Below are positions 1-24,295 of a stretch of DNA of 24,650 bases, piece after piece (the stretch's first letter is position 1; every line of letters starts with the position of its first letter). Under the pieces are notes generated by a model. It did no database searches and had not been told where the DNA came from. It saw only the letters and a program-made list of their open reading frames with translations. The position numbers and the translations under genes were made by a program. The DNA is from a virus, in UHGV virus genome UHGV-0200293. One strand, given 5' to 3'.

Positions 1-271
1 CGGATTGTATGTATCTAATTTTTCTGGCTATGTTGTTGGGATATTGTTCAGTTACGTCCTTAACACATATTTTACTTTCTCGTCAAAGCCATCATTCAGA
101 AGGTTGGTTAAGTTCATTGTATGTTGTGCAGCCTGCTACGTCATCAATCTCATAGCCATGAAAACAACTATAGCATTTGGTTTTGAAAATAAATATTTAA
201 TCCAGCTGGCAGGGATGTTTTTCTATACAATCTCTGGTTTTTTAATTAATAAACTCTGGGTAATGAAATAA
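1..271 (+). CDS. gtrA: GtrA-family bactoprenol-linked glucose flippase, C-terminal 88-89 codons (5' end outside window)
   Basis: Small hydrophobic protein ending in stop that overlaps the gtrB ATG; gtrA-gtrB-gtrC order. Confidence 0.75.
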   Translation, partial: GLYVSNFSGYVVGILFSYVLNTYFTFSSKPSFRRLVKFIVCCAACYVINLIAMKTTIAFGFENKYLIQLAGMFFYTISGFLINKLWVMK

Positions 272-1227
272 TGAAAGCGCCTGTTCTTTCCATTGTTGTG
301 CCTTGCTATAATGAGCAAGATGTTTTTAGCCTTTGTCTTAATGAGTTATCATCTCGTATGAGTGAAATGAAAGACAAAGGGAAAATAGATAGAGAAAGTC
401 ATATAGTCTTTGTTGATGATGGAAGCAAAGATAATACCTGGCGATTAATAGAAGAAGCATCAAGTGACAGTTGTCTGGTGAAAGGGGTAAAACTTTCACG
501 AAATAAAGGCCATCAGACTGCATTGATGGCAGGGTTATCATCATGCACTACATCTGACATTACTGTAAGTATTGATGCTGACTTGCAAGATGACACCGCT
601 GTGATTGAAAAAATGGTTGACTCCTATCTCTCTGGTCACGACATAGTATACGGAGTAAGGAACGACAGAACCTCAGATAGTTTTTTTAAGAAGTTTACAG
701 CAGAAGCATTCTATAAGGTAATGACCAGGCTTGGTGTAAATCAGGTTGAAAATCATGCTGATTTTAGGCTGTTAAGTCGAAGGGCGCTCAACTCCCTTTT
801 ACAGTATAAAGAACAAAACCTATATATTCGGGGTCTTATCCCCCTGATCGGATATCCAAGTGATAAAGTGTACTATTCTCGTCATGAGCGAGCGGCAGGA
901 GAATCAAAGTACCCGCTCAGAAAAATGCTGGCTCTTGCCCTTGAAGGAATCACATCGTTCTCAGTAACTCCGTTGAGGATCGTAACCGCTTTAGGTTTTA
1001 TTATCTCTATACTTTCATCAATTGGAGTTATATATACTCTTGCCCAGTATTTTCTTGGACATACTGTTAGTGGATGGGCGTCGATGATTTTAGCTGTACT
1101 ATTTATAGGTGGAGTTCAAATGCTCTGCCTTGGTGTGATTGGCGAGTATATTGGTAAGATATATATTGAAAGTAAAAAAAGACCAAAGTTTTTTATTTCT
1201 GAGGTAACGGAAAATGACAAAGAATAA
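271..1227 (+). CDS. gtrB: GtrB bactoprenol glucosyltransferase (GT2 family)
   Basis: N-terminus MKAPVLSIVVPCYNEQDVF, DxD-type GT2 core, two C-terminal TM helices; 318 aa. Confidence 0.9.
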   Translation: MKAPVLSIVVPCYNEQDVFSLCLNELSSRMSEMKDKGKIDRESHIVFVDDGSKDNTWRLIEEASSDSCLVKGVKLSRNKGHQTALMAGLSSCTTSDITVSIDADLQDDTAVIEKMVDSYLSGHDIVYGVRNDRTSDSFFKKFTAEAFYKVMTRLGVNQVENHADFRLLSRRALNSLLQYKEQNLYIRGLIPLIGYPSDKVYYSRHERAAGESKYPLRKMLALALEGITSFSVTPLRIVTALGFIISILSSIGVIYTLAQYFLGHTVSGWASMILAVLFIGGVQMLCLGVIGEYIGKIYIESKKRPKFFISEVTENDKE

Positions 1228-2914
1228 TAAAGTATATTTTATATCCTTTGTGATTGTGTTAGTTTTAGCTCTGTTAAATGTGCATGTATTCATGGGTAAT
1301 GAACAGAGCGTGTACTTTTGGGACTCCAAAAATTTTTGGATGCAATGGATGAGATACGCCGATCTGTTGTTCCAGAGCCCGTTGGACTGGGGCATGTCTG
1401 TTTATACAACAGTAACAAAGGATGACTATAACGCTCTGTCTACAGCATTATTATTTCCATTTAAATTTCTGCCCATCGACTCAAGAAGTGCTTACATATA
1501 CGCTATAACCATTACATATTTAATCCCTGTAATTTTATTGGCAACATTTATTTTATTAAAAATATTTGAAAACAAGTCAGCATTCTATGTAATAACAACA
1601 GCTATTCTTGTTGTATTATATACTCCATTCTGGAAACCAACTCTTAGAGGTTTGCCTGATGTTGTCGGACTGATACCTATTCTCTGTGTGATTTATTTTA
1701 CGATAAAAAATAACTTATCAAACAGAGTATTGTTATTTAAATCAGTTTTTCTCGGCATTCTGTTATGGATGCCATTTGCATTTAGAAGATGGTATATATT
1801 TACGGTCATCACCTTATATATAACCTTGCCTTTTTTTGTGGCTTATTATCATGATGTTAAGTTTAAGTTCGAGTTAAACAAAGCAAAAAACATATTGATT
1901 AACTTTTTCATCTCAGGAATAATCACTGTTGCCCTTGCATTATTAATTCAGAAAGAGTTAATAGCCAGAATAATATCTACAGATTACTCAACCATGTATT
2001 CAGCTTACCAATATGGATTCTCAAAATCACTTATGGTGATTTTTGGAGATATTGGTTTGTTTATGATGCCATTTTTTATATTTGGCATAATTAGTGCCAT
2101 TTCAAACATTAAAACAAAGCAAAGCGTTTTTGTTCTTTTCTCTGCTTTCTCGTTTGTTATCAGTGTACTATTATTTACTGGTACTCAGACACCCGGCATT
2201 CATCATGTTCTACCATTCTCTCTGTGGTTCTTGTTTGTTTCTATTTTTGGGCTAAATTACATATCATCATTATTCAAGAGCAAGGATGCCGAACATTCTT
2301 TACTTACCATAATTATGGTAGGCATGACGCTTATATCTGTTAGCACTTTTAACAAACCATTCCCTTCTTATAAAAATGGCTTCCATATATTTCCTGATGG
2401 ATTATACCCATATAAAGTTTCCAATTTCGACGAGTACAAAAGGCTGAGTGATAGACTTGTAGCCCTTACGAATAGTGGCGATAAAATATCTGTATTTAGC
2501 TCTAACTACATCTTAAATGATGATATGTTACTTACAATATCTAATTTCAAGCTTACCCCTCGTGTATTCCGTGTATCTCAAGTAGATTTGCGCGATAAAC
2601 TCAGGATGGAAGCTTTCTCCACAAAATATGTTGTGGTTACTAACCCCATACAGTTGCATTTAAACAAGGACGGACAAAGGGTCATCTCTTACCCTGCGAC
2701 CTTATTGTTAAATAGAAAAGGTATAGGTTCGGCATATAAAAAACTTGATGAAAAATATCAACTAAGTAAAGGGGTTTCTGCATATATCTATGAAAAGCAG
2801 AGGCCATTTACTGAGTCTGAGTCCCAAGATTTTATAAAAAACATAGTTAATATGTACCCTCAATGGAATGAACTATACAATAATGCTAAGACATTAAAAT
2901 TATTATCTGAATAA
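1214..2914 (+). CDS. gtrC: GtrC-type serotype-specific O-antigen glucosyltransferase, polytopic membrane protein
   Basis: 566 aa, many TM segments, overlaps gtrB end by 14 nt; third gene of the gtr operon. Confidence 0.65.
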   Translation: MTKNNKVYFISFVIVLVLALLNVHVFMGNEQSVYFWDSKNFWMQWMRYADLLFQSPLDWGMSVYTTVTKDDYNALSTALLFPFKFLPIDSRSAYIYAITITYLIPVILLATFILLKIFENKSAFYVITTAILVVLYTPFWKPTLRGLPDVVGLIPILCVIYFTIKNNLSNRVLLFKSVFLGILLWMPFAFRRWYIFTVITLYITLPFFVAYYHDVKFKFELNKAKNILINFFISGIITVALALLIQKELIARIISTDYSTMYSAYQYGFSKSLMVIFGDIGLFMMPFFIFGIISAISNIKTKQSVFVLFSAFSFVISVLLFTGTQTPGIHHVLPFSLWFLFVSIFGLNYISSLFKSKDAEHSLLTIIMVGMTLISVSTFNKPFPSYKNGFHIFPDGLYPYKVSNFDEYKRLSDRLVALTNSGDKISVFSSNYILNDDMLLTISNFKLTPRVFRVSQVDLRDKLRMEAFSTKYVVVTNPIQLHLNKDGQRVISYPATLLLNRKGIGSAYKKLDEKYQLSKGVSAYIYEKQRPFTESESQDFIKNIVNMYPQWNELYNNAKTLKLLSE

Positions 2915-2942
2915 AAACAGGCCGCGAACGCGGCCTGTTTTT
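2913..2942. terminator. Bidirectional intrinsic terminator between gtrC and the convergent phage late operon
   Basis: AAAAA-CAGGCCGCG-AA-CGCGGCCTG-TTTTT: GC hairpin flanked by A-run and T-run, placed between two convergent stop codons. Confidence 0.7.
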
Positions 2943-3750
2943 ACACTATCGTCCCAGTACCATTTTTCCATACTGATCCGGTCCATGTTATAGCGTAACC
3001 TAAAGTTGTATCTAATATCTGCGCACCTGCGTCAACAAGACCAAGGGCGGGCCTTCCTGCGGTAGTAAAACTTGGCAGGCGCGGAGGCTTTACAAAGTTA
3101 ACAGAGTTAGCTGTTCCAAAACATGTAATACTAGCTGTAGTTAACTGTACTGTATATGTATTAGACCAAGCCCAGCGAGTTGTTCCATCATAATATCCAT
3201 TTGCAATTTTGTTATCAAATGTAGCTGGAGTAACTTCAACACCAGTAACAGCGATTGAATCAGCCACTTCGAACACCACGGTGTCAGCGTCGTAAACTTT
3301 CCACTCACCAGAGAAAGTGGAAATGTCGTTGGTCCCGAAGTCTCCAGACCATGACGTGGTATTCATGTAGCCCTGAATGTAGGTGCCAGCGTTCTCACCA
3401 GCGAAGTCGAAGCGTACCCAAAGGTTAGGCTGCCGACCTGCCTGCACTTCATCAAAGATGTACTTCGACAGACGCCACGCGCCGATCTCGTTATCTTTAT
3501 CCGACTTGCGAAACTCACCTTCACCGGAGATCGTCAGATCCATGTTGTTGACCAGGTTCTCCACCAGCCCTTTAGCATCATCTGCTTCGGAGTTGATGGT
3601 GTTCATCGAATAGTCGATGCCCTTGGTCGTCATAGCGCCGAGACGCTTCCACTCGGAAAGCGCTGGCACTGCGTCGGGGCAGCCAAAGGCCATGCGTAGC
3701 ACAGTTACTTTCCCGATCAGCTTGCCAAAATCATTAGCACAGCCTTGCAT
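2941..3750 (-). CDS. Phage major tail (tube)-like protein with C-terminal extension; last gene of the late operon
   Basis: 269 aa; N-terminal region (LGAMTTKGIDYSMNT...DLTISGEGEF) resembles TP901-1-type tail tube proteins from memory; RBS GAGAGG 5 nt before ATG. Confidence 0.4.
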   Translation of the reverse strand: MQGCANDFGKLIGKVTVLRMAFGCPDAVPALSEWKRLGAMTTKGIDYSMNTINSEADDAKGLVENLVNNMDLTISGEGEFRKSDKDNEIGAWRLSKYIFDEVQAGRQPNLWVRFDFAGENAGTYIQGYMNTTSWSGDFGTNDISTFSGEWKVYDADTVVFEVADSIAVTGVEVTPATFDNKIANGYYDGTTRWAWSNTYTVQLTTASITCFGTANSVNFVKPPRLPSFTTAGRPALGLVDAGAQILDTTLGYAITWTGSVWKNGTGTIV

Positions 3751-3809: not shown

Positions 3810-4016
3810 CTATTCGCCGTAAACGCACATGAACTGAAGTCGGAAGACCAATCGTCCCTCTTCAGTCAGGAGTGGTGCTGGCATATTCCCGAGGTTTTGA
3901 ATCAGGCCAAGGCACTCATCGGCAATGTCGTTCTGTTCGACATAATTGATGATTTCCTATGCCTTTTCTGCTGCTGGGCGACGATTACGTACTCGTTCGT
4001 ACATTGGAGGAGTCAT
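3810..4016 (-). pseudogene. Small late-region gene interrupted by in-frame amber codon
   Basis: ATG overlaps upstream stop (ATGA); 19 codons, TAG at 3957-3959, then 48 more in-frame codons to TAG at 3810-3812. Confidence 0.45.
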
Positions 4017-4381
4017 AACGACATTTCCTTGGCGATTGCAGCGTCTATCTGTCGCCGGGTTTCTTCGAAACCTTTAGTAAGAAATTCTTTCTTGGCCGTT
4101 GCCCGGCGGAAGTTCTGCGGTACATTCGGATCATGGACATAAACGGCGTAGTTAGCAGTGTATCCAACGCGCCCAGTAACACGATTTCCGTTCACCGTAA
4201 TCTCTCTGAATTGGCTGTTTATGAGGGTTGAAGTATCAATTGGTGTATACAGAGCCGCCTGCGTTCCGCCTATAATCAAAGCAGATTGCATAGCACGAAC
4301 GACTTTTCTCCCCTGTATATCACCAACAATAGTGTTCAGGTGCCTCTTCGCCTAGTTGACGCCCTTCACTTTGATGCCCAT
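4013..4381 (-). pseudogene. Late-region (head-tail joining or tail completion?) gene interrupted by in-frame amber codon
   Basis: RBS GGAG-AAAAA-ATG at 4379-4381; MGIKVKGVN, TAG at 4352-4354, then 112 in-frame codons; ORF track only reports the part from the internal ATG at 4291. Confidence 0.55.
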
Positions 4382-4437: not shown

Positions 4438-4611
4438 CTACTTATACATGATGCTGATTTCTTTTGAATCCTCTGACTCTTTCCATTCCAACTGAATGAG
4501 AAGAGACGGATCATTACGAATTAGCTCTGCAATTTCATTAAGCTTATCCGCAACAACTCCCGCTGACTCTGGAGTGAAATTACCAGTGTTGTAACCGCTG
4601 ACTTCAGACAT
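4438..4611 (-). CDS. Hypothetical small protein (57 aa), candidate accessory insert
   Basis: Not in ORF track (under 60 aa); RBS GAGAGGA 5 nt before ATG; ends just before a terminator. Confidence 0.4.
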   Translation of the reverse strand: MSEVSGYNTGNFTPESAGVVADKLNEIAELIRNDPSLLIQLEWKESEDSKEISIMYK

Positions 4612-4657: not shown

Positions 4658-4999
4658 TCAGGATGGCGTAATCATCCGCCAGGCGTTCGAACGTGTCGGC
4701 GTAGCGGATATAACCTGGCGCACCTCGTCGGCACCGGCCACAACCGGGTCTGCTTCAGTCGAAACCCCAATCAGCAGGTAATCACCAGCGGCCGCCAGCG
4801 CAAACTCCGTCCAGACGGTATTCTTCACGACGATTTCAGCGCCCAGGCTGGCTAGCTTCTTGCTGAGTCCGCCCTCGTAATCACAGATGATTTGCTCAGG
4901 TTCGGCATAGCCTAGCGGGTCGCCGTATTCGTCATTGCCTTCCAGTTTGCGCCAGATGGTCGCCGTGGCGGTATAGCTCCACGAAGCAATGCTCGACAT
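4658..4999 (-). CDS. Phage head-tail joining / tail completion-like protein (113 aa)
   Basis: Start MSSIASW overlaps the upstream stop (TGATG); position after head-completion genes. Confidence 0.4.
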   Translation of the reverse strand: MSSIASWSYTATATIWRKLEGNDEYGDPLGYAEPEQIICDYEGGLSKKLASLGAEIVVKNTVWTEFALAAAGDYLLIGVSTEADPVVAGADEVRQVISATPTRSNAWRMITPS

Positions 5000-5761: not shown

Positions 5762-5841
5762 GCCGCCCCCCCTTAGCTCGAAGCGAAAACGACAGAGAAG
5801 TGACCGTTGATGTCCTGCTTAACCATCAGGCCAGCTGCACC

Positions 5842-6852
5842 CTAGGTACGCCAGACATAATCGCTGTTATAGAAGAGGCGCGGGTCGGCTACTGTGCCGA
5901 ACGCCTGACCAATAATGGGGGCAATAACTCCAGCACCCAGCGGAACAATCAGGATCTGGTTGCCGGTCAACTGAGCATCTTCTTTTACTGCGGAAATACC
6001 AGATAACTTCAGAATCTCTTCCAGCACGGTGCGGGTTTTATTCTGAGTGTCGTAGTACTGCTCGAGGTTGGACATGATTTCTGCCGACACATGCCAGGTC
6101 TGCTGGCCATACTGATAGTTTTGAAGCTTCAGTACATCGCGCAGCGCAATCGCGGCAGCACGCATAGCGTCTGGATCAGTGCTGGTCGCGAAGTTTACTG
6201 TCAGTGTTACCTGAGCAACGCGCTCGTCCGCCTGCAGCCCTTTCCAGGTATAGTCATCAAATTTGATGAAATTGCCTTCGCTGTCGCGAAAACCATTCCA
6301 GATATAGTCCACATACTGACGGCGAACATCATCAACAGAGCCTGCCTGAGCGTCAGACAGTGATGCCAGAGCGGAACCTTTGTTGAATACCGGATCACGC
6401 CAGTTGAACTTAAAGCCGCTGTCATGGATCGACACCATCGTTCCGTCAAAGGTGTAGCTTTTCGCGTCCAGAGCGGCACCAATCTGACCTGACATAGAAG
6501 TGTGAGCCCAGCCTCGTCCGCCTTTGCGGGCATACTCGTACACTGATTCTTCCAGACGAACGGAACGGGACAGCGGCATCAGATCATTCAGTAGCGTAAA
6601 CTCTGTGGTCGGCTCAAACTCGGCCAGTACTGTCTGGTCATACGCTTTATACAGTCGGCGGATATCGTCTACTGCATTAACAACATCCAGTACAGGGGCG
6701 TTGGATGCCTCACCACGAAATTGCGCGCGGGAGATGAAATCTGCCACAGCCTGAGCGCTAGCATTGCGTGCGAATTGCAACTCCTGAAACTGAGCCTGGT
6801 TGGCCTCAAAGTTTCGGGTCTCCTTCGCCTTTTTCATAGAAAATGCAAACAT
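5842..6852 (-). CDS. Major capsid protein
   Basis: 336 aa; follows scaffold and decoration genes in canonical order. Confidence 0.6.
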   Translation of the reverse strand: MFAFSMKKAKETRNFEANQAQFQELQFARNASAQAVADFISRAQFRGEASNAPVLDVVNAVDDIRRLYKAYDQTVLAEFEPTTEFTLLNDLMPLSRSVRLEESVYEYARKGGRGWAHTSMSGQIGAALDAKSYTFDGTMVSIHDSGFKFNWRDPVFNKGSALASLSDAQAGSVDDVRRQYVDYIWNGFRDSEGNFIKFDDYTWKGLQADERVAQVTLTVNFATSTDPDAMRAAAIALRDVLKLQNYQYGQQTWHVSAEIMSNLEQYYDTQNKTRTVLEEILKLSGISAVKEDAQLTGNQILIVPLGAGVIAPIIGQAFGTVADPRLFYNSDYVWRT

Positions 6853-9469: not shown

Positions 9470-10468
9470 TTAAGTCCCTTGCCATGATATTCGTTCTTTC
9501 GCCAACTTTTCCTTCAGCCCTTCATTGAAGATGCTGCCGTCGTCATTGAGTAGCACCGGAATCTGGCTGCAGTAACAGTTGTACCGGTTGCCGTTCTCGG
9601 CGTAGAAGTTGCGCACCTCTTCGGTCGTGTAGACCTTTCCGTGTCGGCTGGCATGCCAGGTGCGCGTCGTTGGCTTGAGCGCTGACAGCCACAGAAGGCC
9701 GGTGTTCAGCCCAAGCCTGTCGGCCGCCCAGTCCGTTTCATTCCACTGCGCCTGCCGCAGCGCGCCGACCTGTTCAGTCTGAGCGATGGTCTTCGCCTTC
9801 GACATCGACACATCGAGGCGCTTGCTGATGACACTGGCAGTCTCACGCGGATTCACTCCCCGCGCCACTGCATCAGTGATTATGTTGGTCAGATCGCCGC
9901 GGGCTGTATCGCTGATGACCTTCCAGTCACTGAACGTTGTCAGCCTGGCCGCCGCTATCTGGTTTAGATATCCGGGGCTGTTTAAAAGCTGCTGTAACGT
10001 CGTCTGGCTGGCGTACACCTGCGACTGCTGCGAGAAGTTGTTGAAGGCCTCCAGCGTACCGCGCCGCGCCTCTGCGGCGACGTAATCCATCGCCCAGAGG
10101 TTTTGCTCGCCGCCATCCAGCAGGTAATCGTCGAGAATGGCCTGCACCGCTTCGAGGAGATCCGCCAGTTCCTGCGCCGACATGTCGTAGATGAACTTGC
10201 CTGCGTTGACCTGGTAGAGCCGCATATCCTCGCCGTTGTCGTGGCACAGGAAATGCCAGTTATGGCTATTAACTTCTCGCTCTATCCCTTTCAGGCGTAG
10301 GTCGAACAGCGCTTTCAGTGCGCGCTTGATGCCGAGATACCGGTCCTCGATATCCCGGTACATCGCTGTTACCTGCTTTGCCGATCGGGTCGGGTCAACC
10401 TTGCTGCGCGGAACTACCGGTGTCCCTACTTTCGTCTTTTGCTCCGGTGTCATCGGAAAGAGGATCAT
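9470..10468 (-). CDS. Phage head morphogenesis protein (Mu F / SPP1 gp7-like); start uncertain
   Basis: 332 aa directly downstream of portal; N-terminal 74 nt overlap portal, so a downstream start is possible. Confidence 0.55.
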   Translation of the reverse strand: MILFPMTPEQKTKVGTPVVPRSKVDPTRSAKQVTAMYRDIEDRYLGIKRALKALFDLRLKGIEREVNSHNWHFLCHDNGEDMRLYQVNAGKFIYDMSAQELADLLEAVQAILDDYLLDGGEQNLWAMDYVAAEARRGTLEAFNNFSQQSQVYASQTTLQQLLNSPGYLNQIAAARLTTFSDWKVISDTARGDLTNIITDAVARGVNPRETASVISKRLDVSMSKAKTIAQTEQVGALRQAQWNETDWAADRLGLNTGLLWLSALKPTTRTWHASRHGKVYTTEEVRNFYAENGNRYNCYCSQIPVLLNDDGSIFNEGLKEKLAKERISWQGT

Positions 10469-11870
10469 CGGTCGTTACCTTTTTATTTGGGTCAGGCGGC
10501 TTAACATCTTCACGCGGCTCAAGTTCTCCTGCTTCCCTGACCTCATTTTCGTCAACAGCCGGTGTGCCATAGGCCTGTTGAGTATCCTTCGCGACTGCCG
10601 CCATTTCCTTCATGGTGGCGATCTTTTCTTTCTCACTTGGCGCGAGTAGATCAGACCAGGTTAACGTGATTTCGCCAGACTTCGGAGGTTCGATAACTTC
10701 CACAGTCCACAGGCGTTCTATAACTGCACTTGCCCGGTCAGTCTGAAACCCGTTGCGGCGACCATTACAGCGCTTGGCAAAGTCATTTTTGTCCTGATCT
10801 GACGCAAGCCTTCCTGTCTGCTGACCAAACAAGATGGTGAAAGGCATCTGAACTGAAGATGAGAACTGGTTAGCTGATACTGTCCATGTTGGGCCAGGAT
10901 CGGCGGCGGCGACAGAGAGTACTTTCGCCTCCCCATCCTGGGTAACCAGAGCGGAATCTGTACCTGAGTTAAGCTTTTGAATAGCAGCATTCAGCGCCTC
11001 AGCTAAGCCTGAATATCCAGTTCTCTTCGCCTCGTCGACGATGGTCTTGAGATTTGTCTCCTTCGACATGTTAATGCCGAGCTGTCTACTGGCGTTCTTC
11101 AGAACCCCTTCCGCACTACCGCCGGACGTTTTCGCCATATCGAGCAGGTCGTTGTAACCAGCTCGCAGGAATGGAATGCCAGCCAGCGACGTTTCATCTT
11201 CTGATCCCTCACAGAACATGATGATGCGTTCTGGGTGAATCTTAATCGACCGCATTGGCCCAGTGATGTTTCCGTTATCGCCGACCTGTTGCTCCTGGAA
11301 ATAGTAAAACTTCGGCATGCCGTAGTCTGGCGACTTTTGGTCCTGCTCAAGCTCACCGGGTTTAACCTGCGCTTCCCATGCAGGAATCATCTTGACCAGG
11401 CCGCGCTCACGAGTGTTTCGCATTACACTGCGGTCGACGGGCTCCCACCATTCCTTGCTGTCTGCAAACTGAAGGGTAAGTGCTGAGTAATGCCCAACCA
11501 GATTTCGCCGATCCGCATCCTTCACTTTCGCCCAATGTTTCTTCATGAGCTTGGTGACTTTCTTTTCCCACGGCGTCGACTTCTTAGACTTCTTCGTCTC
11601 ATCGCCGTCGACGATCACCGGGGTATCGGTCCAGCATGCATCGAGCAATTTATGCACCGCGCCGAACGCCGAGCCGTTACGTTCATACATGTTGTAGAAG
11701 TGGTAAAAGTCGAGTCGCTCCGGGTAACCAAATTCGCACCAGAGATGATATCGTTTCGTGTTACCTGACTTCCCAAGCCCTGATGCATACAACTGGCGTG
11801 CGCGGCCAACCTCGTTAAGGCTGTTCACAATGAGCCCAGCGAGGACTTGCATTTCTGTAGTGTTACTCAC
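10395..11870 (-). CDS. Portal protein
   Basis: 491 aa, acidic C-terminal tail, immediately downstream of terminase large subunit. Confidence 0.6.
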   Translation of the reverse strand: MSNTTEMQVLAGLIVNSLNEVGRARQLYASGLGKSGNTKRYHLWCEFGYPERLDFYHFYNMYERNGSAFGAVHKLLDACWTDTPVIVDGDETKKSKKSTPWEKKVTKLMKKHWAKVKDADRRNLVGHYSALTLQFADSKEWWEPVDRSVMRNTRERGLVKMIPAWEAQVKPGELEQDQKSPDYGMPKFYYFQEQQVGDNGNITGPMRSIKIHPERIIMFCEGSEDETSLAGIPFLRAGYNDLLDMAKTSGGSAEGVLKNASRQLGINMSKETNLKTIVDEAKRTGYSGLAEALNAAIQKLNSGTDSALVTQDGEAKVLSVAAADPGPTWTVSANQFSSSVQMPFTILFGQQTGRLASDQDKNDFAKRCNGRRNGFQTDRASAVIERLWTVEVIEPPKSGEITLTWSDLLAPSEKEKIATMKEMAAVAKDTQQAYGTPAVDENEVREAGELEPREDVKPPDPNKKVTTDDPLSDDTGAKDESRDTGSSAQQG

Positions 11871-11880
11871 TGAGTTGTCC

Positions 11881-13356
11881 TTATGTGAAGAAGATTGCGC
11901 CGACCTGCTTGTGGTTGTTCTTCGCTACCGCAAAGTAGCGGAAGCCGTCAGCACCGTGTGATGTGAAGTCATGAAGCGGTTTATCTTTCCAGCATCCGCG
12001 CTTGTCGTCCCACTCCTTGCGGTAGCCTTCGAGGTGAGATATGCCCTCGGCACACTTCTCCTCATCGGATACACATGATGGGAGGATTTCACGCACCGAC
12101 TCAATGCCGGTATCAACTCCCACTTTCGGAACCACCTGAAACGTCATGCTGTAAACCTGCCCGTCGATTTCATACCCCTCGCGGGCAAGCTCTCTACGGG
12201 ATTTGGCGTCAGCACCGAATTCACGGTTATCGATGTCGTGCGGGCCCCAGTGCTCGTCGTACTCGTAGCCACGGTCTTTCAGCACCTTCATGTAGTGCCT
12301 CAGGCCCTCGCCAGAGTTTTCGTAGTAGTCGATGATGTGAAACTCTTCGCCAACCTCACGAACGAACCAGATAGCCGTAGAATCGCCCACGCCGATATCC
12401 CAGAACGTATGGACCGGAAGGTGCGAGTTGTCCGGGATTTGGCCGATTCGCTTGTTGGTGTAGAGCCAGCGGAATTGTTTGGCGTAGTACGCGCCCTCGA
12501 CAGACTGCTGGAAAGCCTCCGCCGGTATGTTCGGGTATTCGCGCTTCATGTCGTCGCCGAGAGTTTTCTCTTTGGCGTAGTACCATGCTTTCTGGCGCTC
12601 GTTGACGACTACACCATGCTTCGCCTCCATTTCAGCGAAGTACTCAACCAGGCGCACCGGCAGCGATTCAACCGGGTCGATTGCGTACTGCGGGTTCTTC
12701 CACCAGGAGAAGAAGAAAAACTTCCAGTCGAGCGCGGATAATGGCTTGCCTTGCAGCAACGCTTTCTCTGCCGTCTGGCAGTAATCGAAAAAGTACCCCG
12801 CCCGGCCCTCGGCTGTGCTCTCGATAGTAGCGAAGCATCCAGTCGATACCGCTTCAAACGCACCAGTGACGATTTCACGGGCTTTGTCAGGATACTTGGC
12901 GCATATCTTCCCGAACTCGGAAACGTGCAGGTAGCGCAGCGTACCGCCACGAAACGACGTGCTGACGTAGAGTGAGCCGCCCTTCTTAAAGACGAGCTCA
13001 CCGGAAGAGTCGTTGCTAGCCGGGTTGGCCGCCTTTATCTCTGCCGGCAACTTGTCATAGGCATACTTCACCTTTTCCCGAAAGAGGCGCTTTGCATCAT
13101 TCAGTGTGTGGGCGATCAGCGCGCACTTTGCAGACTCGAACAGCGCCGCGTCCAACTGGATGATGCACACCTCAGTTGTGAAACCGAGCTGGCGAGCTTT
13201 CAGGATGATATTACGTATATGGATCCCCTCAAAGTATTTCCGTTGCTCAGGCGTCATCCTGAACCGCGTCGGCTTTCCCTCTTTGTCGGTTATCCAGTAA
13301 AGATTGTTCAGCCGCCAGTCTTTGTCGGCCAGCAGCTTGAGGTGCTCAGGTTTCAT
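11881..13356 (-). CDS. Terminase large subunit
   Basis: 491 aa; start overlaps the small-subunit stop; followed by portal. Confidence 0.7.
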   Translation of the reverse strand: MKPEHLKLLADKDWRLNNLYWITDKEGKPTRFRMTPEQRKYFEGIHIRNIILKARQLGFTTEVCIIQLDAALFESAKCALIAHTLNDAKRLFREKVKYAYDKLPAEIKAANPASNDSSGELVFKKGGSLYVSTSFRGGTLRYLHVSEFGKICAKYPDKAREIVTGAFEAVSTGCFATIESTAEGRAGYFFDYCQTAEKALLQGKPLSALDWKFFFFSWWKNPQYAIDPVESLPVRLVEYFAEMEAKHGVVVNERQKAWYYAKEKTLGDDMKREYPNIPAEAFQQSVEGAYYAKQFRWLYTNKRIGQIPDNSHLPVHTFWDIGVGDSTAIWFVREVGEEFHIIDYYENSGEGLRHYMKVLKDRGYEYDEHWGPHDIDNREFGADAKSRRELAREGYEIDGQVYSMTFQVVPKVGVDTGIESVREILPSCVSDEEKCAEGISHLEGYRKEWDDKRGCWKDKPLHDFTSHGADGFRYFAVAKNNHKQVGAIFFT

Positions 13357-13958
13357 TACGCCCCCTGAGACAGTGAATCCATCAGGTCAGACAGTTGCTT
13401 AACAGAGTTGTCGCCTTCTGGCCCGTCGATATCGCAGGCCTGGCGTTCAAGTCCGATCAAGTTCTTCAGCGCGTCGCTCAGAGCCTTCACTGACTTAACT
13501 CGCTCCGGCATGCTGATGACCTTGTGGTAAATCTCATTGAGCTTGTCCTGGCCTTTGTCGTCGGGGTCGAGCATCAACTCTCCGAGCTTCTCCAGTGCGG
13601 CCACATCTGCGCACTCTGCGCCCAGCTCATCAAACAGCGCATTGGTTATCTGGCGTGCTCGCTTAATGTCACCGCGATGCTCCATGCGGACATTGGCTAT
13701 TACCTCAGCCGTCGCCTCGATGAGTACGCGTTCGTTAAAAGTGACTTCACTGCGTACCTGCTTGCGTACCTCTGCTTTGCGTACCAGATCGTCAGCGCGT
13801 TCTTTCACTTTCGCATTCAGGTCACGTGACCAGTCGTCACGCTTGGCACGCTTACGGATAGCGCCTTCGCTGATGCCGTGTTGAGATGCTATTTCTCGGA
13901 GAGACATCACCCCGGCCCGGTACGCCGTCTCGATGGCCTCCCAGTCGGGTTTGCTCAT
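13356..13958 (-). CDS. Terminase small subunit (HTH DNA-binding)
   Basis: 200 aa; N-terminal HTH-like SLREIASQHGISEGAIRKRAKR; first gene of the packaging module. Confidence 0.6.
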   Translation of the reverse strand: MSKPDWEAIETAYRAGVMSLREIASQHGISEGAIRKRAKRDDWSRDLNAKVKERADDLVRKAEVRKQVRSEVTFNERVLIEATAEVIANVRMEHRGDIKRARQITNALFDELGAECADVAALEKLGELMLDPDDKGQDKLNEIYHKVISMPERVKSVKALSDALKNLIGLERQACDIDGPEGDNSVKQLSDLMDSLSQGA

Positions 13959-14811: not shown

Positions 14812-15273
14812 TTATTGACATTGATTTTTAATGTAATTCTGCAAACCAGCAATTAGGATTTTGTTGGTTGCGATTCGTTCTCTGAGATTGAAATAATCCC
14901 GTTGAGCGGCGTCAGTAAGTCTGGCGCTGGCTGCATCATCCACGCCGGGGGCGGAGGTGGCTTTACGCACGCTGTCACAGGCTGCGGCGACGCGCAGCCG
15001 TTTAGCGCCAGAATCGACATCCCTACGCAAATCGCTAATGGTGTTTTGCGCATCGAATAACTCCTGTGTGTACTTCGCATCCAGCGCGGCAACATCGCGC
15101 TGCCGGGTTGTCATGTCGGTGATGGTGGCATTAGCCAGATTCAGCGCCTGAGTCTTCTCATCGCGCTGCTTCTTGTATTCTGTGGCGTTGTCGCGGTAGT
15201 GATTAACAGCCCAGCCAAGAGATACGATGATGCAGATGACCACAGCGATGATGGTTGCGGTTAACCTGCTCAT
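14812..15273 (-). CDS. Rz-like i-spanin
   Basis: N-terminal TM helix, coiled-coil periplasmic part; start overlaps endolysin stop. Confidence 0.7.
14853..15053 (-). CDS. Rz1-like o-spanin lipoprotein embedded in Rz
   Basis: Internal start [20 protein letters not shown] (lipobox) and Pro-rich body in the +1 frame of Rz. Confidence 0.6.
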
Positions 15274-15758
15274 TTCTCACCCCACAGGCAAACTTCGCGC
15301 TCAATCTCGCGGCGGGTCATCAGCCCTTTCCACTGCTTTCCGCCAGCGTAAGTCCAGCACCTTAACTGCTCGCATGCACCTTTGATATCGCCCTGGTTGA
15401 TTTTGTACAGGAGCGTTGAGGTCTTGAAGTTTCCAGCGCCAACGTTGTACGCGAAAGAGTAAATCGCTGCTCGTTGAGTTTCAGTAGTCGGCACTTTGAT
15501 GTGCGGATCAACCTGTGCGGCAGTTCGCGTTAAATCTTTCCTGGTTAGTGCGTCGCATTCTTTATCGGAGTATCGCTTTCCGGGAATGATGTCTGAACCT
15601 GTGTGTCCATCGCATACTGTAATTACACCAACGACGTCACGGTATGCGACATACTCCCTTCCCTCAACGCCATCCTTACCTGACAGCATGACTGTTGCGA
15701 TCGCAATCGCACCGCCACCGATGGAGGCAGCAATTTTATTTCGCAGGGTGCTGTTCAT
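15270..15758 (-). CDS. SAR endolysin (T4-lysozyme-type, phage 21 R-like)
   Basis: N-terminal signal-arrest-release segment [17 protein letters not shown] and C-terminal [21 protein letters not shown], close to phage 21 R as I recall it. Confidence 0.8.
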
Positions 15759-15871
15759 CAGATTTCCTTCGGTGCTTTCTGTCTGAGATCGGCGAGAACT
15801 TCGGCTGTAGCAGATGGGTTGCTTGAATCAGTCTTGTTCAGAATGTCCTGCAGTATCTTCGTGCGCTTCAT

Positions 15872-16030
15872 TTACTCACGCTTATTGAGCCTGTATGTCA
15901 GGACGCCGAGGATGATGCTGAACGCGACGCCAATGATGAAGCCCCAGTCCTGCAATGACAGGCTGGCAAAGAAAGCCGCAAGGCCAGCGCTGCCGTATGT
16001 CGCGTTGCTGTATCTTTCGTCCATCTTCAT
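15872..16030 (-). CDS. Pinholin-like class II holin (phage 21 S-like), 52 aa
   Basis: Met-Lys-Met dual start, two TM segments with Gly-rich first helix; not in ORF track (under 60 aa); RBS GAGGAG. Confidence 0.6.
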   Translation of the reverse strand: MKMDERYSNATYGSAGLAAFFASLSLQDWGFIIGVAFSIILGVLTYRLNKRE

Positions 16031-16484: not shown

Positions 16485-16515
16485 AAAAAAGCCCAAGGTG
16501 TTAACCTCGGGCTTT
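16485..16515. terminator. Hairpin terminator; candidate late terminator tR-prime on minus strand
   Basis: A6-GCCCAAGGTGTTAACCTCGGGC-TTT; minus-strand reading ends in UUUUUUAUUG, about 50 nt downstream of the candidate late promoter. Confidence 0.5.
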
Positions 16516-16567
16516 AATTCTTTGTGTCGACAATTAAAGCTATAACGACGATATCAGACTTACATAA

Positions 16568-16596
16568 AATATATGCGTTTCAGTTCGGTTTTGCAA
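16568..16596 (-). promoter_or_regulatory. Candidate sigma-70 late promoter (pR-prime analogue) at the 3' end of the Q-like gene
   Basis: Minus strand TTGCAA-17 nt-TATATT; position matches lambda pR-prime just after Q. Confidence 0.35.
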
Positions 16597-17263
16597 GACT
16601 TACATTCGAATTTGTCGCCTTTTGTTGTAAACGTGATCGCGTTACGGAGATAAGCGCATCATTATCGAGCCGCTTAAAGACATTACGCAGTGCCAACCAG
16701 TGAGGCAGGTACGTCTCTGTCCAGGTGGATTTAGCTACGCCCACCAGCTCAGCCAGCTTCTGGTACTCGTACGTCTCGCGGCCGCACAGCTCTGCTTTGA
16801 CGTCCTGCGCCGCCAACCAGATTAACGCCCGGAGTCGCTCCAGCGTTTTTCCGGCGATTTTCTTGCCAGCGAGTTGCGCCGTAAACTTATTCCATGCCCA
16901 GCGGGTTATGTCGACCTGATATTCAAACCGAGTATTTTCACTGTAGCTCCAGAGCAACTAGGCTTTTTGATGCTCGTCGAGCGACATTAGCGCCCGACGC
17001 CATGAAGCAGTGGAGTATTCAACCGGCTGCACCAGCGGGATATGCGATCCTTTGGCGTGTGATTGTTTTCCGGGGATCGGAGGGTTGTTCAGCGTTATCA
17101 GTTTTCCCGTAACTTCATCGCGTACACGCAACCTCTTGCGGGGGTAAGTATTCGTATCGAACTGCGCGTTCTCCAGCCAGGCCATTAACTGACCCTTTGT
17201 CGCTCCGCTCAGATCTGCCGTGGCCGCAATCAGTTGCTGGCGAATATAGGATAAATTTTTCAC
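16580..17263 (-). pseudogene. Late-gene regulator (Q-antiterminator-like by position) interrupted by an in-frame amber codon
   Basis: ORF-track ORFs 16958..17263 and 16580..16957 are contiguous and in frame, separated only by TAG (16958-16960); the distal 125 codons contain no ATG; GTG start with SD GGGGA. Confidence 0.5.
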
Positions 17264-17400
17264 TGATTTTCCCCTGCTTTCTGCTGAATACGGATGTAAT
17301 TGCGAAGGATGCGGTATGCCACCGGAAAAGATCCCCGGTAGCGATAAATGCGGAGACGCAGCCAGCGCAGACGGAGTATCTCGATCACTTCTGGTTTCAT
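17260..17400 (-). CDS. Small ORF (46 aa) translationally coupled to ninG
   Basis: ATG overlaps NinG stop (ATGA); its stop overlaps the Q-like GTG start. Confidence 0.3.
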   Translation of the reverse strand: MKPEVIEILRLRWLRLRIYRYRGSFPVAYRILRNYIRIQQKAGENQ

Positions 17401-17977
17401 GCAGCCTCCTGACGCTTCAACTCTTTGAGTTTTGCCCGGTACTCATCACGAATTCGGATGTAGTCTTCACGTTTCCATTTGGGTAATTCGTGCGGCCCCA
17501 TAAGGGCATCAAAGCGGGCCTGGCTGATTTTGGTGATCAGCGCCGGTCGATAGGCAATTAGGTTTCCTGACAGATGGTTATTGCAGGGGGCGCACTGGCG
17601 ATGACAGTTGTCTTCATTAAACCGCAACTCAGGGTTTGCGCCGGTCGTGCGGAAGTGACCGGCGTGATACTGCCCTTCATGGTGACGCCCACAACTGATG
17701 CATGGCAGATGCCTGTCACGGTAGCGGATGAACTCGTTAAAGGCCTGCTGGGCCTGCTTAATGAAGTAGCTGAGTGGTTTCACTGCCTGACAACGCTCAG
17801 CCAGACGCTTACGTTCGGCCTTCTCCCCCCCAAGTCGGCGCTTTTTATCTTTCCGTTGCTTCTCGGCTTTGGCTGCGTCATTCACGACTAGACGTACTGC
17901 TCATGACGGACCGGGTTAAACCACTCACGGCATACTGTGCATTTTCGGCGAGGGCGCTTTTTCTGATTATTAGCCAT
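17397..17977 (-). pseudogene. NinG/Rap-like recombination protein, frameshifted near the N-terminus
   Basis: Good RBS and ATG at 17975-17977 open a 29-codon frame (RRKCTVCREWFNP...) ending at TAG 17888-17890; the remaining 162 codons (KQAQQAFNEF...LPCISCG...) continue in a different frame from GTG 17885. Confidence 0.5.
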
Positions 17978-17979
17978 AA

Positions 17980-18186
17980 TCACCCCCATCCTTTTTGTCG
18001 GAAGGTTCTCGGCGTCCGCGCCGGACGTTCGCATTCTTGTAATTTCGCGCTGACTGTCCAGGTCAGGAAATCAGGATTGAGGCTCTTTTGGGCTCTGACG
18101 CCGCGAGACTGATAATCGGCAATCAGGCGCTCTGCCTGCTCGGTGGTGCATTCCGTGTGATGAAAATATGAATACTTCATCGCCAT
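17980..18186 (-). CDS. Small nin-region protein (68 aa)
   Basis: ATG overlaps upstream stop (TGATG); ORF-track ORF extends upstream into the neighbouring gene. Confidence 0.4.
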   Translation of the reverse strand: MAMKYSYFHHTECTTEQAERLIADYQSRGVRAQKSLNPDFLTWTVSAKLQECERPARTPRTFRQKGWG

Positions 18187-19441: not shown

Positions 19442-19457
19442 CTGTATATTTATACAG
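19442..19457. promoter_or_regulatory. LexA (SOS) box upstream of the dinI homologue
   Basis: CTGTATATTTATACAG fits CTGT-N8-ACAG; lies 21-36 nt upstream of the dinI-like ATG. Confidence 0.6.
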
Positions 19458-20405: not shown

Positions 20406-20810
20406 ATGATAAAATTTTTAATGTTGATTGTGGTGACATTAACCATTGCAGGTTGCTCCCCTCTTGCACCTACAGGCTGTCAGAAAAAAAACGCAATGGA
20501 ATCATGCGAATATAAGAGTTCAGGTAAAGTGTCGGATAAGGATATATATGGATGGTACTCATCCAGAATAAAAAAAGCTTTGGACGCAGCACTTACAGAG
20601 CCCCATGCCTGGAATGGTAAAAGATGTGACGCTCATCTGGATTTCAAAGTCGATGGCACCCTGCAAAATTTTATCGTGAAAGGTGGTGACAAAGATTATT
20701 GCGCTGCATTGCAAAAAGCTTCTGAAAGAGCGACATTCCCGGCGTTTACCGATCGGAGAGTTTACTTTAATATGGGTTCCGCAAGATGGAACTTCGAAGG
20801 TCAGCCATGA
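20406..20810 (+). CDS. Lipoprotein with TolA C-terminal (domain III)-like domain
   Basis: Signal peptide with lipobox LTIAGC; C-terminus GKRCDAHLDFKVDGTLQNFIVKGGDKDYCAALQKA...FPAF aligns with E. coli TolA GKTCTLRIKLAPDGMLLDIKPEGGDPALCQAALAAA...IPKPP (from memory). Confidence 0.6.
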   Translation: MIKFLMLIVVTLTIAGCSPLAPTGCQKKNAMESCEYKSSGKVSDKDIYGWYSSRIKKALDAALTEPHAWNGKRCDAHLDFKVDGTLQNFIVKGGDKDYCAALQKASERATFPAFTDRRVYFNMGSARWNFEGQP

Positions 20811-21093
20811 AAACTATGGTGCGCCGGGAGATCCCCGGCGTTCTCAACCTGAGAAAAAACCATTTTCACTTCTGCTGGTCAAACAGCTTCCTCAACATCC
20901 ACCAGCAGCAGGTTTTCCAGCTCTATAATCCGATTGGTGGTGTATTGCAGAAGTTGATCCATCATGCCTCCTGCTGCGGTGCTGCTGGCAGTGGCATCCA
21001 GTGAGTTGGCTTGCAATAAACACCACCACCATTCGGAAGTGATGCAAACCTAAACCATCCATCTGTTTCATTGTGCTCAATGTATCCGACCAT

Positions 21094-21381
21094 CTACTCT
21101 TTCTTATCAGCGCAGTAAACCTGAACATCAACATCGCGATCCGGCATCCGCTCGCTTACCGGAATCCATCTGCCTGGCAACTTGTAAGCGTCACTTACAG
21201 GTTCATCGTTCTGAGCATCACGCAGAGCACAAAAGACTTTATTACGCAATTCGTTGAACTCGTCAGAGCGAATAACCCTGCGCCAGTCCAGCGCATGAGC
21301 GTACAGGAAATCACTGGCGAGGTTAGCACCACGACCAGCGCGCAGGAATCGGCAACTAACGTTGATGCCGTTGCCGACGAT
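21094..21381 (-). pseudogene. Remnant of a DUF551-like phage early gene (no start codon, truncated)
   Basis: Minus-frame translation ...LDWRRVIRSDEFNELRNKVFCALRDAQNDEPVSDAYKLPGRWIPVSERMPDRDVDVQVYCADKKE* is open without any usable start; W-I-x-V-S-E-R-M-P motif resembles DUF551. Confidence 0.3.
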
Positions 21382-21705
21382 CTACGCGATCGCATTGATA
21401 CAGCAAGCTCCGTTGTTCAGGCAAAAGCCATTCGCGTGGATATCGAATCACAGAAAGTGTTGCTGGGAACCGCCCTGTACACCGAACTGAAAAATAAGGC
21501 GGTGAAACGTTACTACCAGGTCGATGCGCAGAACAAGGTCGGGGCTGTGATCAACTCACTTCCAAATCCCGGCGAACCGGAAGCCACAGCGATGTTCGCT
21601 AAAGCTGAAAGTACGCTCACCGCAGCCAAACGTCATCTGGGCGATGAACTGTATGACCAGTTCCGCATCACCCTGGACGACATGAAACCGGAATACGTGG
21701 GCTAA
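21295..21705 (+). CDS. Hypothetical early-region protein (about 137 aa, start uncertain)
   Basis: 3' part of ORF-track ORF 21073..21705; upstream part overlaps the minus-strand remnant; weak RBS at the ATG. Confidence 0.3.
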   Translation: MSVQEITGEVSTTTSAQESATNVDAVADDLRDRIDTASSVVQAKAIRVDIESQKVLLGTALYTELKNKAVKRYYQVDAQNKVGAVINSLPNPGEPEATAMFAKAESTLTAAKRHLGDELYDQFRITLDDMKPEYVG

Positions 21706-22048: not shown

Positions 22049-22264
22049 ATGTCACAGGTAATTTTTAACGAAGAGTGGGTTGTTGAGTCCAGACTTACCG
22101 AAAGAACAGGGCTTACTGAAGGACAGATTAAAAATTATCGCCTGAAGCTATGGGTTGAAGGTGTTCACTTCAAGCGCCTTACTGCGCTTGGACAGACTGA
22201 CAACTCTAAAGGTCTGCTTTGGTACAACTACCCGAAGATTAATCAGTTAGTTCAGGATGCTTAA
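22049..22264 (+). CDS. Excisionase-like protein
   Basis: 71 aa immediately upstream of and overlapping the integrase start; RBS GAGGTG. Confidence 0.5.
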   Translation: MSQVIFNEEWVVESRLTERTGLTEGQIKNYRLKLWVEGVHFKRLTALGQTDNSKGLLWYNYPKINQLVQDA

Positions 22265-23550
22265 TGAAATACCCGACTGGTGTTGAACTGCATAACGGAA
22301 AAATCAGGATCACATTTATCTATCGCGGCATTCGTTGCCGCGAAGTTCTCCAGGGTTGGGTTGTCAACAGTAGCAACATTAAAAAAGCGGGCAATCTGCG
22401 CGCAGCAATTGTGAGTGAGATACAACTCGGTAAGTTCGACTACGCAGATCGTTTCCCGGAATCAAAAGCTCTTAAGAAATTTTCGTCCACAAAACGGATC
22501 TCCACATTCAAAGAACTGAGTGATTTTTTTACAGATACAAAGTCACTGGAGGTATCTGAAGCCACTTTGCTATCCATCACATCAGTCGTTAACACCCTGA
22601 AACGAGTCGTGGGCGAGAACACACGGCTGGTTGATATTCAGCACGCAGATATTCTGAATTACCGCAAAGAACTCCTGACCGGGGAAGTTTTCAACCCTTC
22701 AATACCAAACCGCATCAAAAATGGGCGCGCGCCCTCAACAGTCAATAAACAGATGGCTGTTTTATCAGAAATGCTGAAGCTTGCAAACCGAAGCCAGTTT
22801 ATATTGCATGCTCCTTATGAAGGAGTGTCGCGACTCAAGTTATCTAAAAATGATCCCGACCCACTTTTACTTCATGAGTACCAGGCACTGATAGCCGCCC
22901 TTCCCCGTAGCCAGGCATTAATCATCATTATTGCGGTACATACAGGGATGAGGCCGGGCGAGATATGCGCACTGGCATGGGAAGATATTGATTTGGTAAA
23001 AGGTGAAATCCACGTATCCAGAAATTTGACGAACAAGCAAGTATTTGTACCCCCTAAAACAGATGCCGGGATAAGGACGATAACGTTGCTGAAACCTGCT
23101 CATGATGCTCTGCTGGAGCAATACGAAATCACTGGGAACAGTCCAAAACAGGAAATTCAGTTTCATCATCGTGAGATCGGAAAAACTGAGCAGCAATATC
23201 TTCGCTTCGTTTTTTCACCGACAACATACTCGTCAACGAAAGGCGGTTACTTTTCCAAGGACTCGATTTCGTATGGCTGGAAACGTGGGACTAAACTTTC
23301 AGGTATACGTGAGCGCAATCCATATCAGTCGCGTCACACATATGCCTGCTGGACGCTGATGGCCGGAGCGACCCCGTCGTTCATTGCCAGCCAGATGGGA
23401 CATGAAGATGCGCGGATGGTATACGAGGTTTACTCCAAGTGGATTGGTGATATGAACCAGGATCAGGTCAACATGCTGAACAATCAGATGCCGACAGCAC
23501 TGCCTCCAGGACGCCCCCAAGGGCGAGGGAGTATGAAAAAAGTCATTTAA
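22264..23550 (+). CDS. int: Tyrosine-type site-specific integrase
   Basis: 428 aa; C-terminal catalytic region with SRHTYA and GHEDARMVYEVY; at the prophage end next to the host gene. Confidence 0.85.
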   Translation: MKYPTGVELHNGKIRITFIYRGIRCREVLQGWVVNSSNIKKAGNLRAAIVSEIQLGKFDYADRFPESKALKKFSSTKRISTFKELSDFFTDTKSLEVSEATLLSITSVVNTLKRVVGENTRLVDIQHADILNYRKELLTGEVFNPSIPNRIKNGRAPSTVNKQMAVLSEMLKLANRSQFILHAPYEGVSRLKLSKNDPDPLLLHEYQALIAALPRSQALIIIIAVHTGMRPGEICALAWEDIDLVKGEIHVSRNLTNKQVFVPPKTDAGIRTITLLKPAHDALLEQYEITGNSPKQEIQFHHREIGKTEQQYLRFVFSPTTYSSTKGGYFSKDSISYGWKRGTKLSGIRERNPYQSRHTYACWTLMAGATPSFIASQMGHEDARMVYEVYSKWIGDMNQDQVNMLNNQMPTALPPGRPQGRGSMKKVI

Positions 23551-23620: not shown

Positions 23621-24295
23621 ATGATGCGCGTACTGGTTGTCGAAGATAATGCCTTATTACGCCACCACCTGAAGGTTCAATTACAGGATTTGGGGCACCA
23701 GGTTGATGACGCAGAAGATGCAAAGGAAGCCGATTATTATCTTAACGAGCATCTGCCGGACATCGCCATCGTCGATTTAGGCCTCCCGGATGAAGACGGG
23801 CTTTCGCTGATCCGCCGCTGGCGCAGCAATGACGTTTCCCTTCCTGTTCTGGTATTAACCGCCCGTGAGGGCTGGCAGGATAAAGTGGAAGTGCTGAGCG
23901 CCGGCGCCGACGACTACGTGACAAAACCGTTTCATATTGAAGAAGTGGTCGCGCGTATGCAGGCGTTAATGCGCCGCAACAGCGGCCTGGCCTCGCAGGT
24001 TATCTCTATTCCGCCTTTTCAGGTGGATCTCTCCCGCCGTGAATTGTCCGTAAATGATGAAGTGATAAAATTGACGGCGTTTGAATACACCATTATGGAA
24101 ACGCTGATCCGCAATAATGGCAAAGTCGTCAGCAAAGATTCGTTGATGCTACAGCTCTACCCGGATGCGGAACTGCGTGAAAGCCATACCATTGATGTAT
24201 TAATGGGGCGCTTACGCAAAAAAATTCAGGCGCGATATCCTGATGATGTGATTACCACCGTCCGTGGTCAGGGATACCTGTTCGAACTGCGCTAA
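23621..24295 (+). CDS. phoP: Two-component response regulator PhoP
   Basis: Near-identical along its length to enterobacterial PhoP ([19 protein letters not shown]...TVRGQGY.FELR); real start may be the second Met at 23624. Confidence 0.95.

Follow-up and report, generated by a model that had tools for sequence, protein, structure and literature searches.

The DLP12, Rac, and Qin elements of E. coli K-12 are cryptic, grounded lambdoid prophages that lack immunity, replication, and tail modules and carry genes inactivated by point mutations. The Q-amber and S-amber mutants of laboratory λ, obtained by engineering or selection, are complete phages in other respects and need suppressor hosts for growth. 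The Q antiterminators of the phage 82 family are represented by the Pfam profile PF06323 (PMC9388147). At the phage 82 late promoter, pR′, an extended −10-like pause element is accompanied by a discriminator at +15 to +17, and the pause occurs at +25 (PMC5001585). A short, terminated by-product of a late promoter can be a regulatory small RNA, as StxS demonstrates (PMC7547250). IsrJ is a 74-nt RNA that has been detected experimentally in Salmonella Gifsy-1 and linked to invasion and effector translocation (PMC2330248).

The window analyzed here, 24,650 nucleotides of the UHGV virus genome UHGV-0200293, carries a roughly 24-kb lambdoid prophage remnant of the Gifsy-1-like type. The remnant lies between purB and phoP in one Citrobacter koseri lineage and is present in about 50 assemblies. 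Its late-gene activator is a phage 82-type Q gene, which was very probably killed by a TGG-to-TAG mutation at an invariant tryptophan, as one neutral step in the decay of a grounded element.

The Q Gene Is Cut by a Single Codon

The Q region contains the following features.

17260..17400, minus strand: ylcG-family small gene, directly upstream of Q (PF26818 match on the called gene in the identical locus L001).
16961..17263, minus strand: proximal half of the Q82-family antiterminator gene, 101 codons, matching PF06323 profile positions 1–100 (E 7e-50).
16958..16960, minus strand: in-frame amber codon TAG, replacing Trp102.
16580..16957, minus strand: distal half of the Q gene, 125 codons plus TGA (16582..16580), matching PF06323 positions 102–218 (E 2e-43).

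The proximal half starts with a GTG at 17263, and this start overlaps the ylcG stop. The distal half opens with TTG right after the TAG, has neither an ATG nor an internal Met in its 125 codons, and holds the −35 hexamer of the late promoter within its last codons. An earlier note on this DNA had described two same-frame open reading frames separated only by TAG, and both the minus-strand sequence and the list of open reading frames agree. Its view that the distal half is no independent gene is borne out by a set of 84 homologous loci (80 viral contigs and 4 phage records with Q homologues of 62–84% identity), all 84 of which encode an uninterrupted protein of about 227–229 residues. Its assignment of a late-gene regulator in the Q position is likewise upheld by the gene order, in which Q lies downstream of the nin region, after NinG and YlcG, and is followed by the promoter and terminator and then by the lysis cassette of holin, endolysin, and Rz.

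When joined, the two halves match PF06323 (Phage_antiter_Q) in one stretch over positions 1–218 of 220, with an E value of 2e-100 and a score of 335 bits; the cut-off is 25 bits. A single match running across the junction shows that the halves belong to the same gene, interrupted at a single codon, and did not come to lie side by side by chance. Compared by tblastn with the founding member, phage 82 Q (X92588.1), the protein shows 65.8% identity over residues 4–225, or 98% of the length; with the Gifsy-1 Q protein, AntQ, identity is 69.3%. A search of 5.8 billion proteins returned 2764 Q homologues. The best 120 of these are all 216–230 residues long and none is split; the closest is 81% identical.

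A sequence search of the PDB found no solved structure for the Q82 family. An AlphaFold2 model of the closest intact homologue, made with a 24-sequence alignment, had a mean pLDDT of 43 and a pTM of 0.27 and was too poor for use. Judged by its sequence and context, the locus is a Q82-family pseudogene rather than a working member, and everything expected of such a gene is found except the open reading frame.

The Amber Codon Replaces an Invariant Tryptophan

The earlier note had proposed that the ancestral sense codon be read from intact relatives. The codon aligned to the amber is TGG (Trp) in all 84 homologous loci, with an in-frame stop in none, and Trp102 is invariant or nearly so in Q protein alignments. 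Read against these relatives, the Q lesion is a TGG-to-TAG change, that is, one G-to-A transition.

The truncated allele is widespread in its lineage. The exact 101-residue product appears among the called proteins of 53 contigs (NCBI, ENA, and Logan), all belonging to one C. koseri lineage; the longest is 4,752,495 bp. A one-residue variant, A16V, likewise stops at residue 101, and across the Q site the window is matched with 100% identity by two metagenome scaffolds, each from a different study. The chance that the TAG is an artefact of sequencing or assembly is practically negligible given these 53 contigs from three sources, the A16V variant, and the identical scaffolds of separate studies, and sequencing error was rejected.

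At 92 highly conserved positions, the C. koseri Q has 2 deviations besides its stop. The corresponding figure for intact homologues is 1 at the median and at most 6, which makes the lesion young compared with the family. Even the nearest intact homologue reaches only 81–84% identity. A search for an intact copy of the exact allele, using a 32-nt DNA pattern with N at the mutated base, gave no match in genome, viral, and metagenome contigs. This empty result probably reflects sampling by species representatives rather than true absence. An exact look-up of a repaired Q and a repaired holin among about 15 billion proteins found neither.

The Late Promoter and Its IsrJ-Type Leader

The segment running from the end of Q toward the holin gene contains the elements of a late promoter unit.

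16568..16596, minus strand: late promoter of the pR′ type, TTGCAA (16596..16591), a 17-nt spacer, and TATATT (16573..16568).
16488..16564, minus strand: predicted terminated leader RNA of the late promoter, 75 nt, matching Rfam isrJ (RF01393) with 55.5 bits over model positions 1–75 of 75.
16545..16556, minus strand: candidate sigma70-dependent pause element, TG, A, TATCGT, then CGT, at about +6 to +17 in phage 82 pR′ numbering.
16515..16488, minus strand: tR′-type hairpin of 12 bp plus a T-run, from a terminator scan.

A promoter consensus scan on its own does no better than chance here, with 2 sites against 2.7 expected in shuffled sequences. We accept the promoter and terminator as real because they are conserved in relatives and because the Rfam isrJ match is full length. 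TTGCAA-N17-TATATT recurs with the same spacing, overlapping the Q stop codon, in 76 of the 84 homologous loci, and among 49 distinct relatives, conservation of TGATAT, a few bases into the late transcript, is 95% or higher. The resemblance to pR′ and tR′ that had been noticed from the sequence alone therefore holds, with hexamers, spacer, and hairpin at the positions listed and conserved in relatives. A cognate promoter, a −10-like element, and a terminator directly downstream, as expected of a Q82-family gene, are present and conserved.

By analogy with phage 82, +1 is placed at 16561. The TG then falls at +6/+7, TATCGT at +9 to +14, and CGT at +15 to +17. This layout matches the description of phage 82 pR′ and makes 16545..16556 a candidate pause element. 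The C. koseri sequence has a C-to-T change at both 16544 and 16545 (about +17/+18, in the discriminator beside the pause element), a pair that is unique among the 85 sequences compared. These adjacent changes may weaken pausing or may simply be decay.

The score of the leader against the Rfam isrJ model lies above the gathering score of 37. Its folding energy is −24.1 kcal/mol, with a z-score of −3.75. The match begins 16 nt past the Q stop, and an isrJ match begins at exactly this distance in 12 of 20 sampled viral loci with an intact Q and in Klebsiella phage ST11-VIM1phi8.1. Matches to isrJ are located at 4500–4606 of locus L095 and 1537–1615 of locus L094. Like IsrJ, the leader has its own promoter, with the hexamers that stand upstream of Gifsy-1 isrJ, and an intrinsic terminator. 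From these sequence relationships, we conclude that RNAs of the IsrJ family represent the terminated leaders of late operons of the Q82 type, the counterpart of λ 6S RNA and StxS. A statement of this link, IsrJ as a late-promoter leader, was not found in the searchable papers that mention IsrJ. Tying a virulence-associated Salmonella sRNA to a late-promoter leader of the λ 6S/StxS class is the most useful by-product of the analysis.

On the established mechanism of Q, the consequences for late transcription can be set out as follows. Translation of Q would end after residue 101, leaving no functional Q. Polymerase starting at the intact late promoter would not be modified at the promoter-proximal pause without the full-length protein. 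Unmodified, it would terminate at tR′, and the sole product would be the 75-nt IsrJ-type RNA, with the late operon unread. A low level of UAG readthrough, or of reinitiation at the next TTG, may occur. The locus offers a clean natural case of decay that has reached the activator and most of the operon but left the late promoter unit intact, and it is convenient for asking whether such leaders persist for their own sake.

Other Lesions in the Prophage

The earlier note had supposed that the loss of Q silences otherwise intact-looking terminase, portal, capsid, and lysis genes. This does not stand, as the holin, capsid, gp10-like, and tail genes are themselves broken. As a yardstick for the structural genes, proteins of Klebsiella phage ST101-KPC2phi6.1 were compared with the window by tblastn. 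The genes concerned, along with remnants of the nin and early regions, are the following.

15758..16030, minus strand: holin gene cut by an ochre TAA (15872–15874, codon 53 of 90), where Salmonella phage UPF_BP1 has CAA.
15270–15758, minus strand: endolysin, full length by appearance (Pfam Phage_lysozyme; full-length tblastn match to the ST101-KPC2phi6.1 protein).
14812–15273, minus strand: Rz spanin with embedded Rz1, full length by appearance (Pfam Phage_lysis; full-length tblastn match to ST101-KPC2phi6.1).
5776..6852, minus strand: major capsid gene with TAG at 5842–5844, where two relatives have Trp (TGG).
4016..4381, minus strand: HK97-gp10-like head-tail gene with TAG at 4352–4354 (codon 10), where relatives have CAG or GAG.
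2941..3750, minus strand: major tail gene, truncated (PHROG profile positions 1–178 of 254; tblastn residues 1–190 of 250).
17397..18034, minus strand: NinG pseudogene, with residues 2–25 in one frame and 37–195 in another by tblastn with an intact 195-residue NinG.
21073..21705, plus strand: RecT remnant, with the C-terminal 146 residues homologous (PHROG RecT positions 474–619 of 633).

The holin open reading frame, 16030..15872, has only 52 codons, and the frame runs on past the TAA to the normal end at 15758. The protein is 92% identical to the 90-residue UPF_BP1 holin, and it matches only positions 1–52 of 97 in the PHROG holin profile. The lysis cassette is thus not intact, although endolysin and Rz are. 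In the capsid gene, the TAG strips off the last 22 residues (codons 338–359, 5841..5776). The truncated 336-residue product is found in 49 blocks of a protein collection in the same neighborhood, from which it follows that these lesions are fixed too. In addition, a 115-residue head-tail gene is frameshifted near 4700 and a neck gene is truncated. No tail gene follows the major tail gene within the window; the gtr cluster comes next. Full length by appearance are terS, terL, portal, the Mu-F-like protein, the decoration protein, endolysin, and Rz.

About 11 codons are missing from the Cys-rich N-terminal region of NinG, near 17886, and the frame shifts; the Pfam NinG match begins at profile position 40. 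Homology to full prophages at the same site ends at 21326. No repressor, antirepressor, or replication genes are found between the integrase and dinI.

All four in-frame stops, in Q, holin, capsid, and the gp10-like gene, are one G:C-to-A:T transition away from the codon of relatives. The routes are TGG to TAG twice, CAA to TAA, and, probably, CAG to TAG in the gp10-like gene. Given the holin TAA, the two frameshifts, and the missing tail and replication genes, amber suppression cannot restore the late operon or the phage.

A sister copy of the remnant from another metagenome (L002) keeps both the Q amber and the holin ochre. It has lost most of terS, terL, and portal (window 9796–13578) and 55 bp of Rz (15104–15158). 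These extra losses indicate that decay is still continuing within the lineage.

The Integration Site and Accessory Genes

Two further features bear on the setting of the remnant and on its possible control.

22264..23550, plus strand: integrase; it stands at the left end of the prophage, and host phoP (23621–24295) follows after 70 nt.
19442..19457, minus strand: LexA-box palindrome, CTGTATAAATATACAG, the only zero-mismatch match in the window, 20 nt upstream of a dinI homologue (ATG 19421; PHROG match).

At the other end of the prophage, purB lies just beyond the gtr genes. Exact matches of PhoP, the integrase, and further proteins of the window identify the host as C. koseri; a PhoP scan of genome contigs matched other Citrobacter species only, at about 85% DNA identity. 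The element has the marks of a defective prophage: it lacks repressor, replication, and tail genes, carries four nonsense codons and two frameshifts, and is fixed in its lineage. The stretch between purB and phoP is a hot spot for integration, with highly varied content. Across ten C. koseri genomes (L083–L092), the interval is empty in three (L083, L090, and L092), holds prophages with a full early region, including recE, recT, and a CI-like repressor gene, in three (L085, L088, and L089), and holds other remnants in four (L084, L086, L087, and L091). One purB-phoP remnant bears a λ-type Q instead of the 82-type.

The LexA box is preceded by a strong terminator (19551–19538). The position of the box suggests that the dinI-DUF1367-ninG-ylcG-Q string may be SOS-inducible without any phage repressor. 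At the purB-proximal end, a gtrA-gtrB-gtrC-like O-antigen glucosylation cluster (88, 318, and 566 residues; window 5–2914) looks intact, and it is plausible that this cluster is a reason for retention of the element. A 134-residue lipoprotein (window 20406–20810), which resembles the TolA C-terminal domain, is encoded by a moron-like gene in the deleted early region. The same gene is shared with another C. koseri remnant (L091).

How the Q Gene Was Lost

The Q amber is an ordinary pseudogene lesion, one among many in a decayed prophage. Stops that arise only by transition, the commonest class of mutation, and that stand beside frameshifts and large deletions are the pattern expected of unselected decay. 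Nonsense-inactivated regulators are common in decaying prophages, and the Q locus needs no new mechanism. It is tempting to ascribe the lesions to selection instead: after loss of the repressor, knock-outs of Q and holin would be favored since a working Q, if still transcribed, would activate the lysis genes and would itself be toxic. No repressor gene lies between int and dinI, and the perfect LexA box upstream of the dinI-to-Q string is a possible source of Q transcription. The homologous Gifsy-1 AntQ, when expressed, causes growth arrest and death (PMC4825925), and the late activator and the holin are both struck, with endolysin and Rz intact. Nevertheless, stops of the same type also cut the capsid gene and the gp10-like gene, neither of which harms the host. 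The lesions are not concentrated on toxic functions, and such selected disarmament is, in our view, unlikely. It is quite unlikely, too, that the remnant has been kept for its RNA, with the Q-less promoter and terminator locked into production of a 75-nt IsrJ-type RNA that became a host regulator, alongside a useful gtr cluster. Such a role would parallel those reported for IsrJ in Salmonella and StxS in EHEC.

The remaining readings would rescue some function for the split gene. If the amber were read through, by a host suppressor or by high natural readthrough, full-length Q would be made, with the TAG serving as a leaky or conditional gate; of the four in-frame stops, three are TAG and could be masked by an amber suppressor. 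However, the holin stop is TAA, the frameshifts and deletions are beyond suppression, no tRNA gene of any kind is found in the window, and the commonest class of transition, when it strikes a TGG or CAG codon, accounts for each of the three TAGs. Moreover, two of the TAGs replace a Trp at a position that is Trp in every relative examined, and the usual amber suppressors insert residues other than Trp. Readthrough is thus very improbable. A stop-codon-recoded phage with TAG reassigned, in which numerous late-gene stops of a single kind and a suppressor tRNA of the phage's own would be expected, was rejected on account of there being only three TAGs and one TAA, the lack of a tRNA gene in the window, the frameshifts, and the deletions. 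Nor does the TTG that directly follows the TAG, a possible start codon, make it other than extremely improbable that the halves are separate polypeptides, the distal one made by reinitiation. The 15 nt before the TTG (GAGCATCAAAAAGCC) contain no Shine–Dalgarno-like sequence, the break removes the invariant Trp, the single-domain PF06323 model spans it, and no split homologue occurs in the 84 loci or among the best 120 of the 2764 proteins. With no relative split and one PF06323 domain across the break, a naturally split Q gene was rejected.

Comparison with Known Systems

The amber mutants of laboratory λ resemble the C. koseri element in that nonsense codons interrupt both the late activator and the holin gene. 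They differ in that the C. koseri stops are natural, are of two kinds (TAG and TAA), and are accompanied by irreparable deletions. From DLP12, Rac, and Qin, the remnant differs in its purB-phoP site, its host, and a set of lesions specific to one C. koseri lineage.

As in phage 82, Q follows the nin genes, the promoter overlaps the end of the gene, and between about +6 and +14 there is an extended −10-like element with a terminator beyond it (PMC5001585). In contrast to phage 82, the C. koseri Q is cut by TAG at Trp102, and the leader is of the IsrJ type (TATCGT CGT) rather than the 82 type (TATTGT GCC).

The Gifsy-1 prophage of Salmonella Typhimurium, with its antQ-isrK-anrP-isrJ locus, shares the nin-region order dinI, DUF1367, ninG, ylcG, and Q, and it has the same TTGCAA-N17-TATATT promoter directly upstream of isrJ. 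In Gifsy-1, Q is intact, and a c4/isrK-orf45-antirepressor module is inserted between Q and the isrJ promoter. In the C. koseri locus, Q is dead, and isrJ starts 16 nt beyond its stop codon, which is also the spacing in most relatives.

Finally, the λ 6S RNA and StxS also arise from a constitutive late promoter that, when Q is absent, gives a short terminated RNA between pR′ and tR′. They belong with another Q family and are unrelated in sequence, and the C. koseri leader RNA, predicted from its sequence, would be the corresponding product of a Q82-type late operon.
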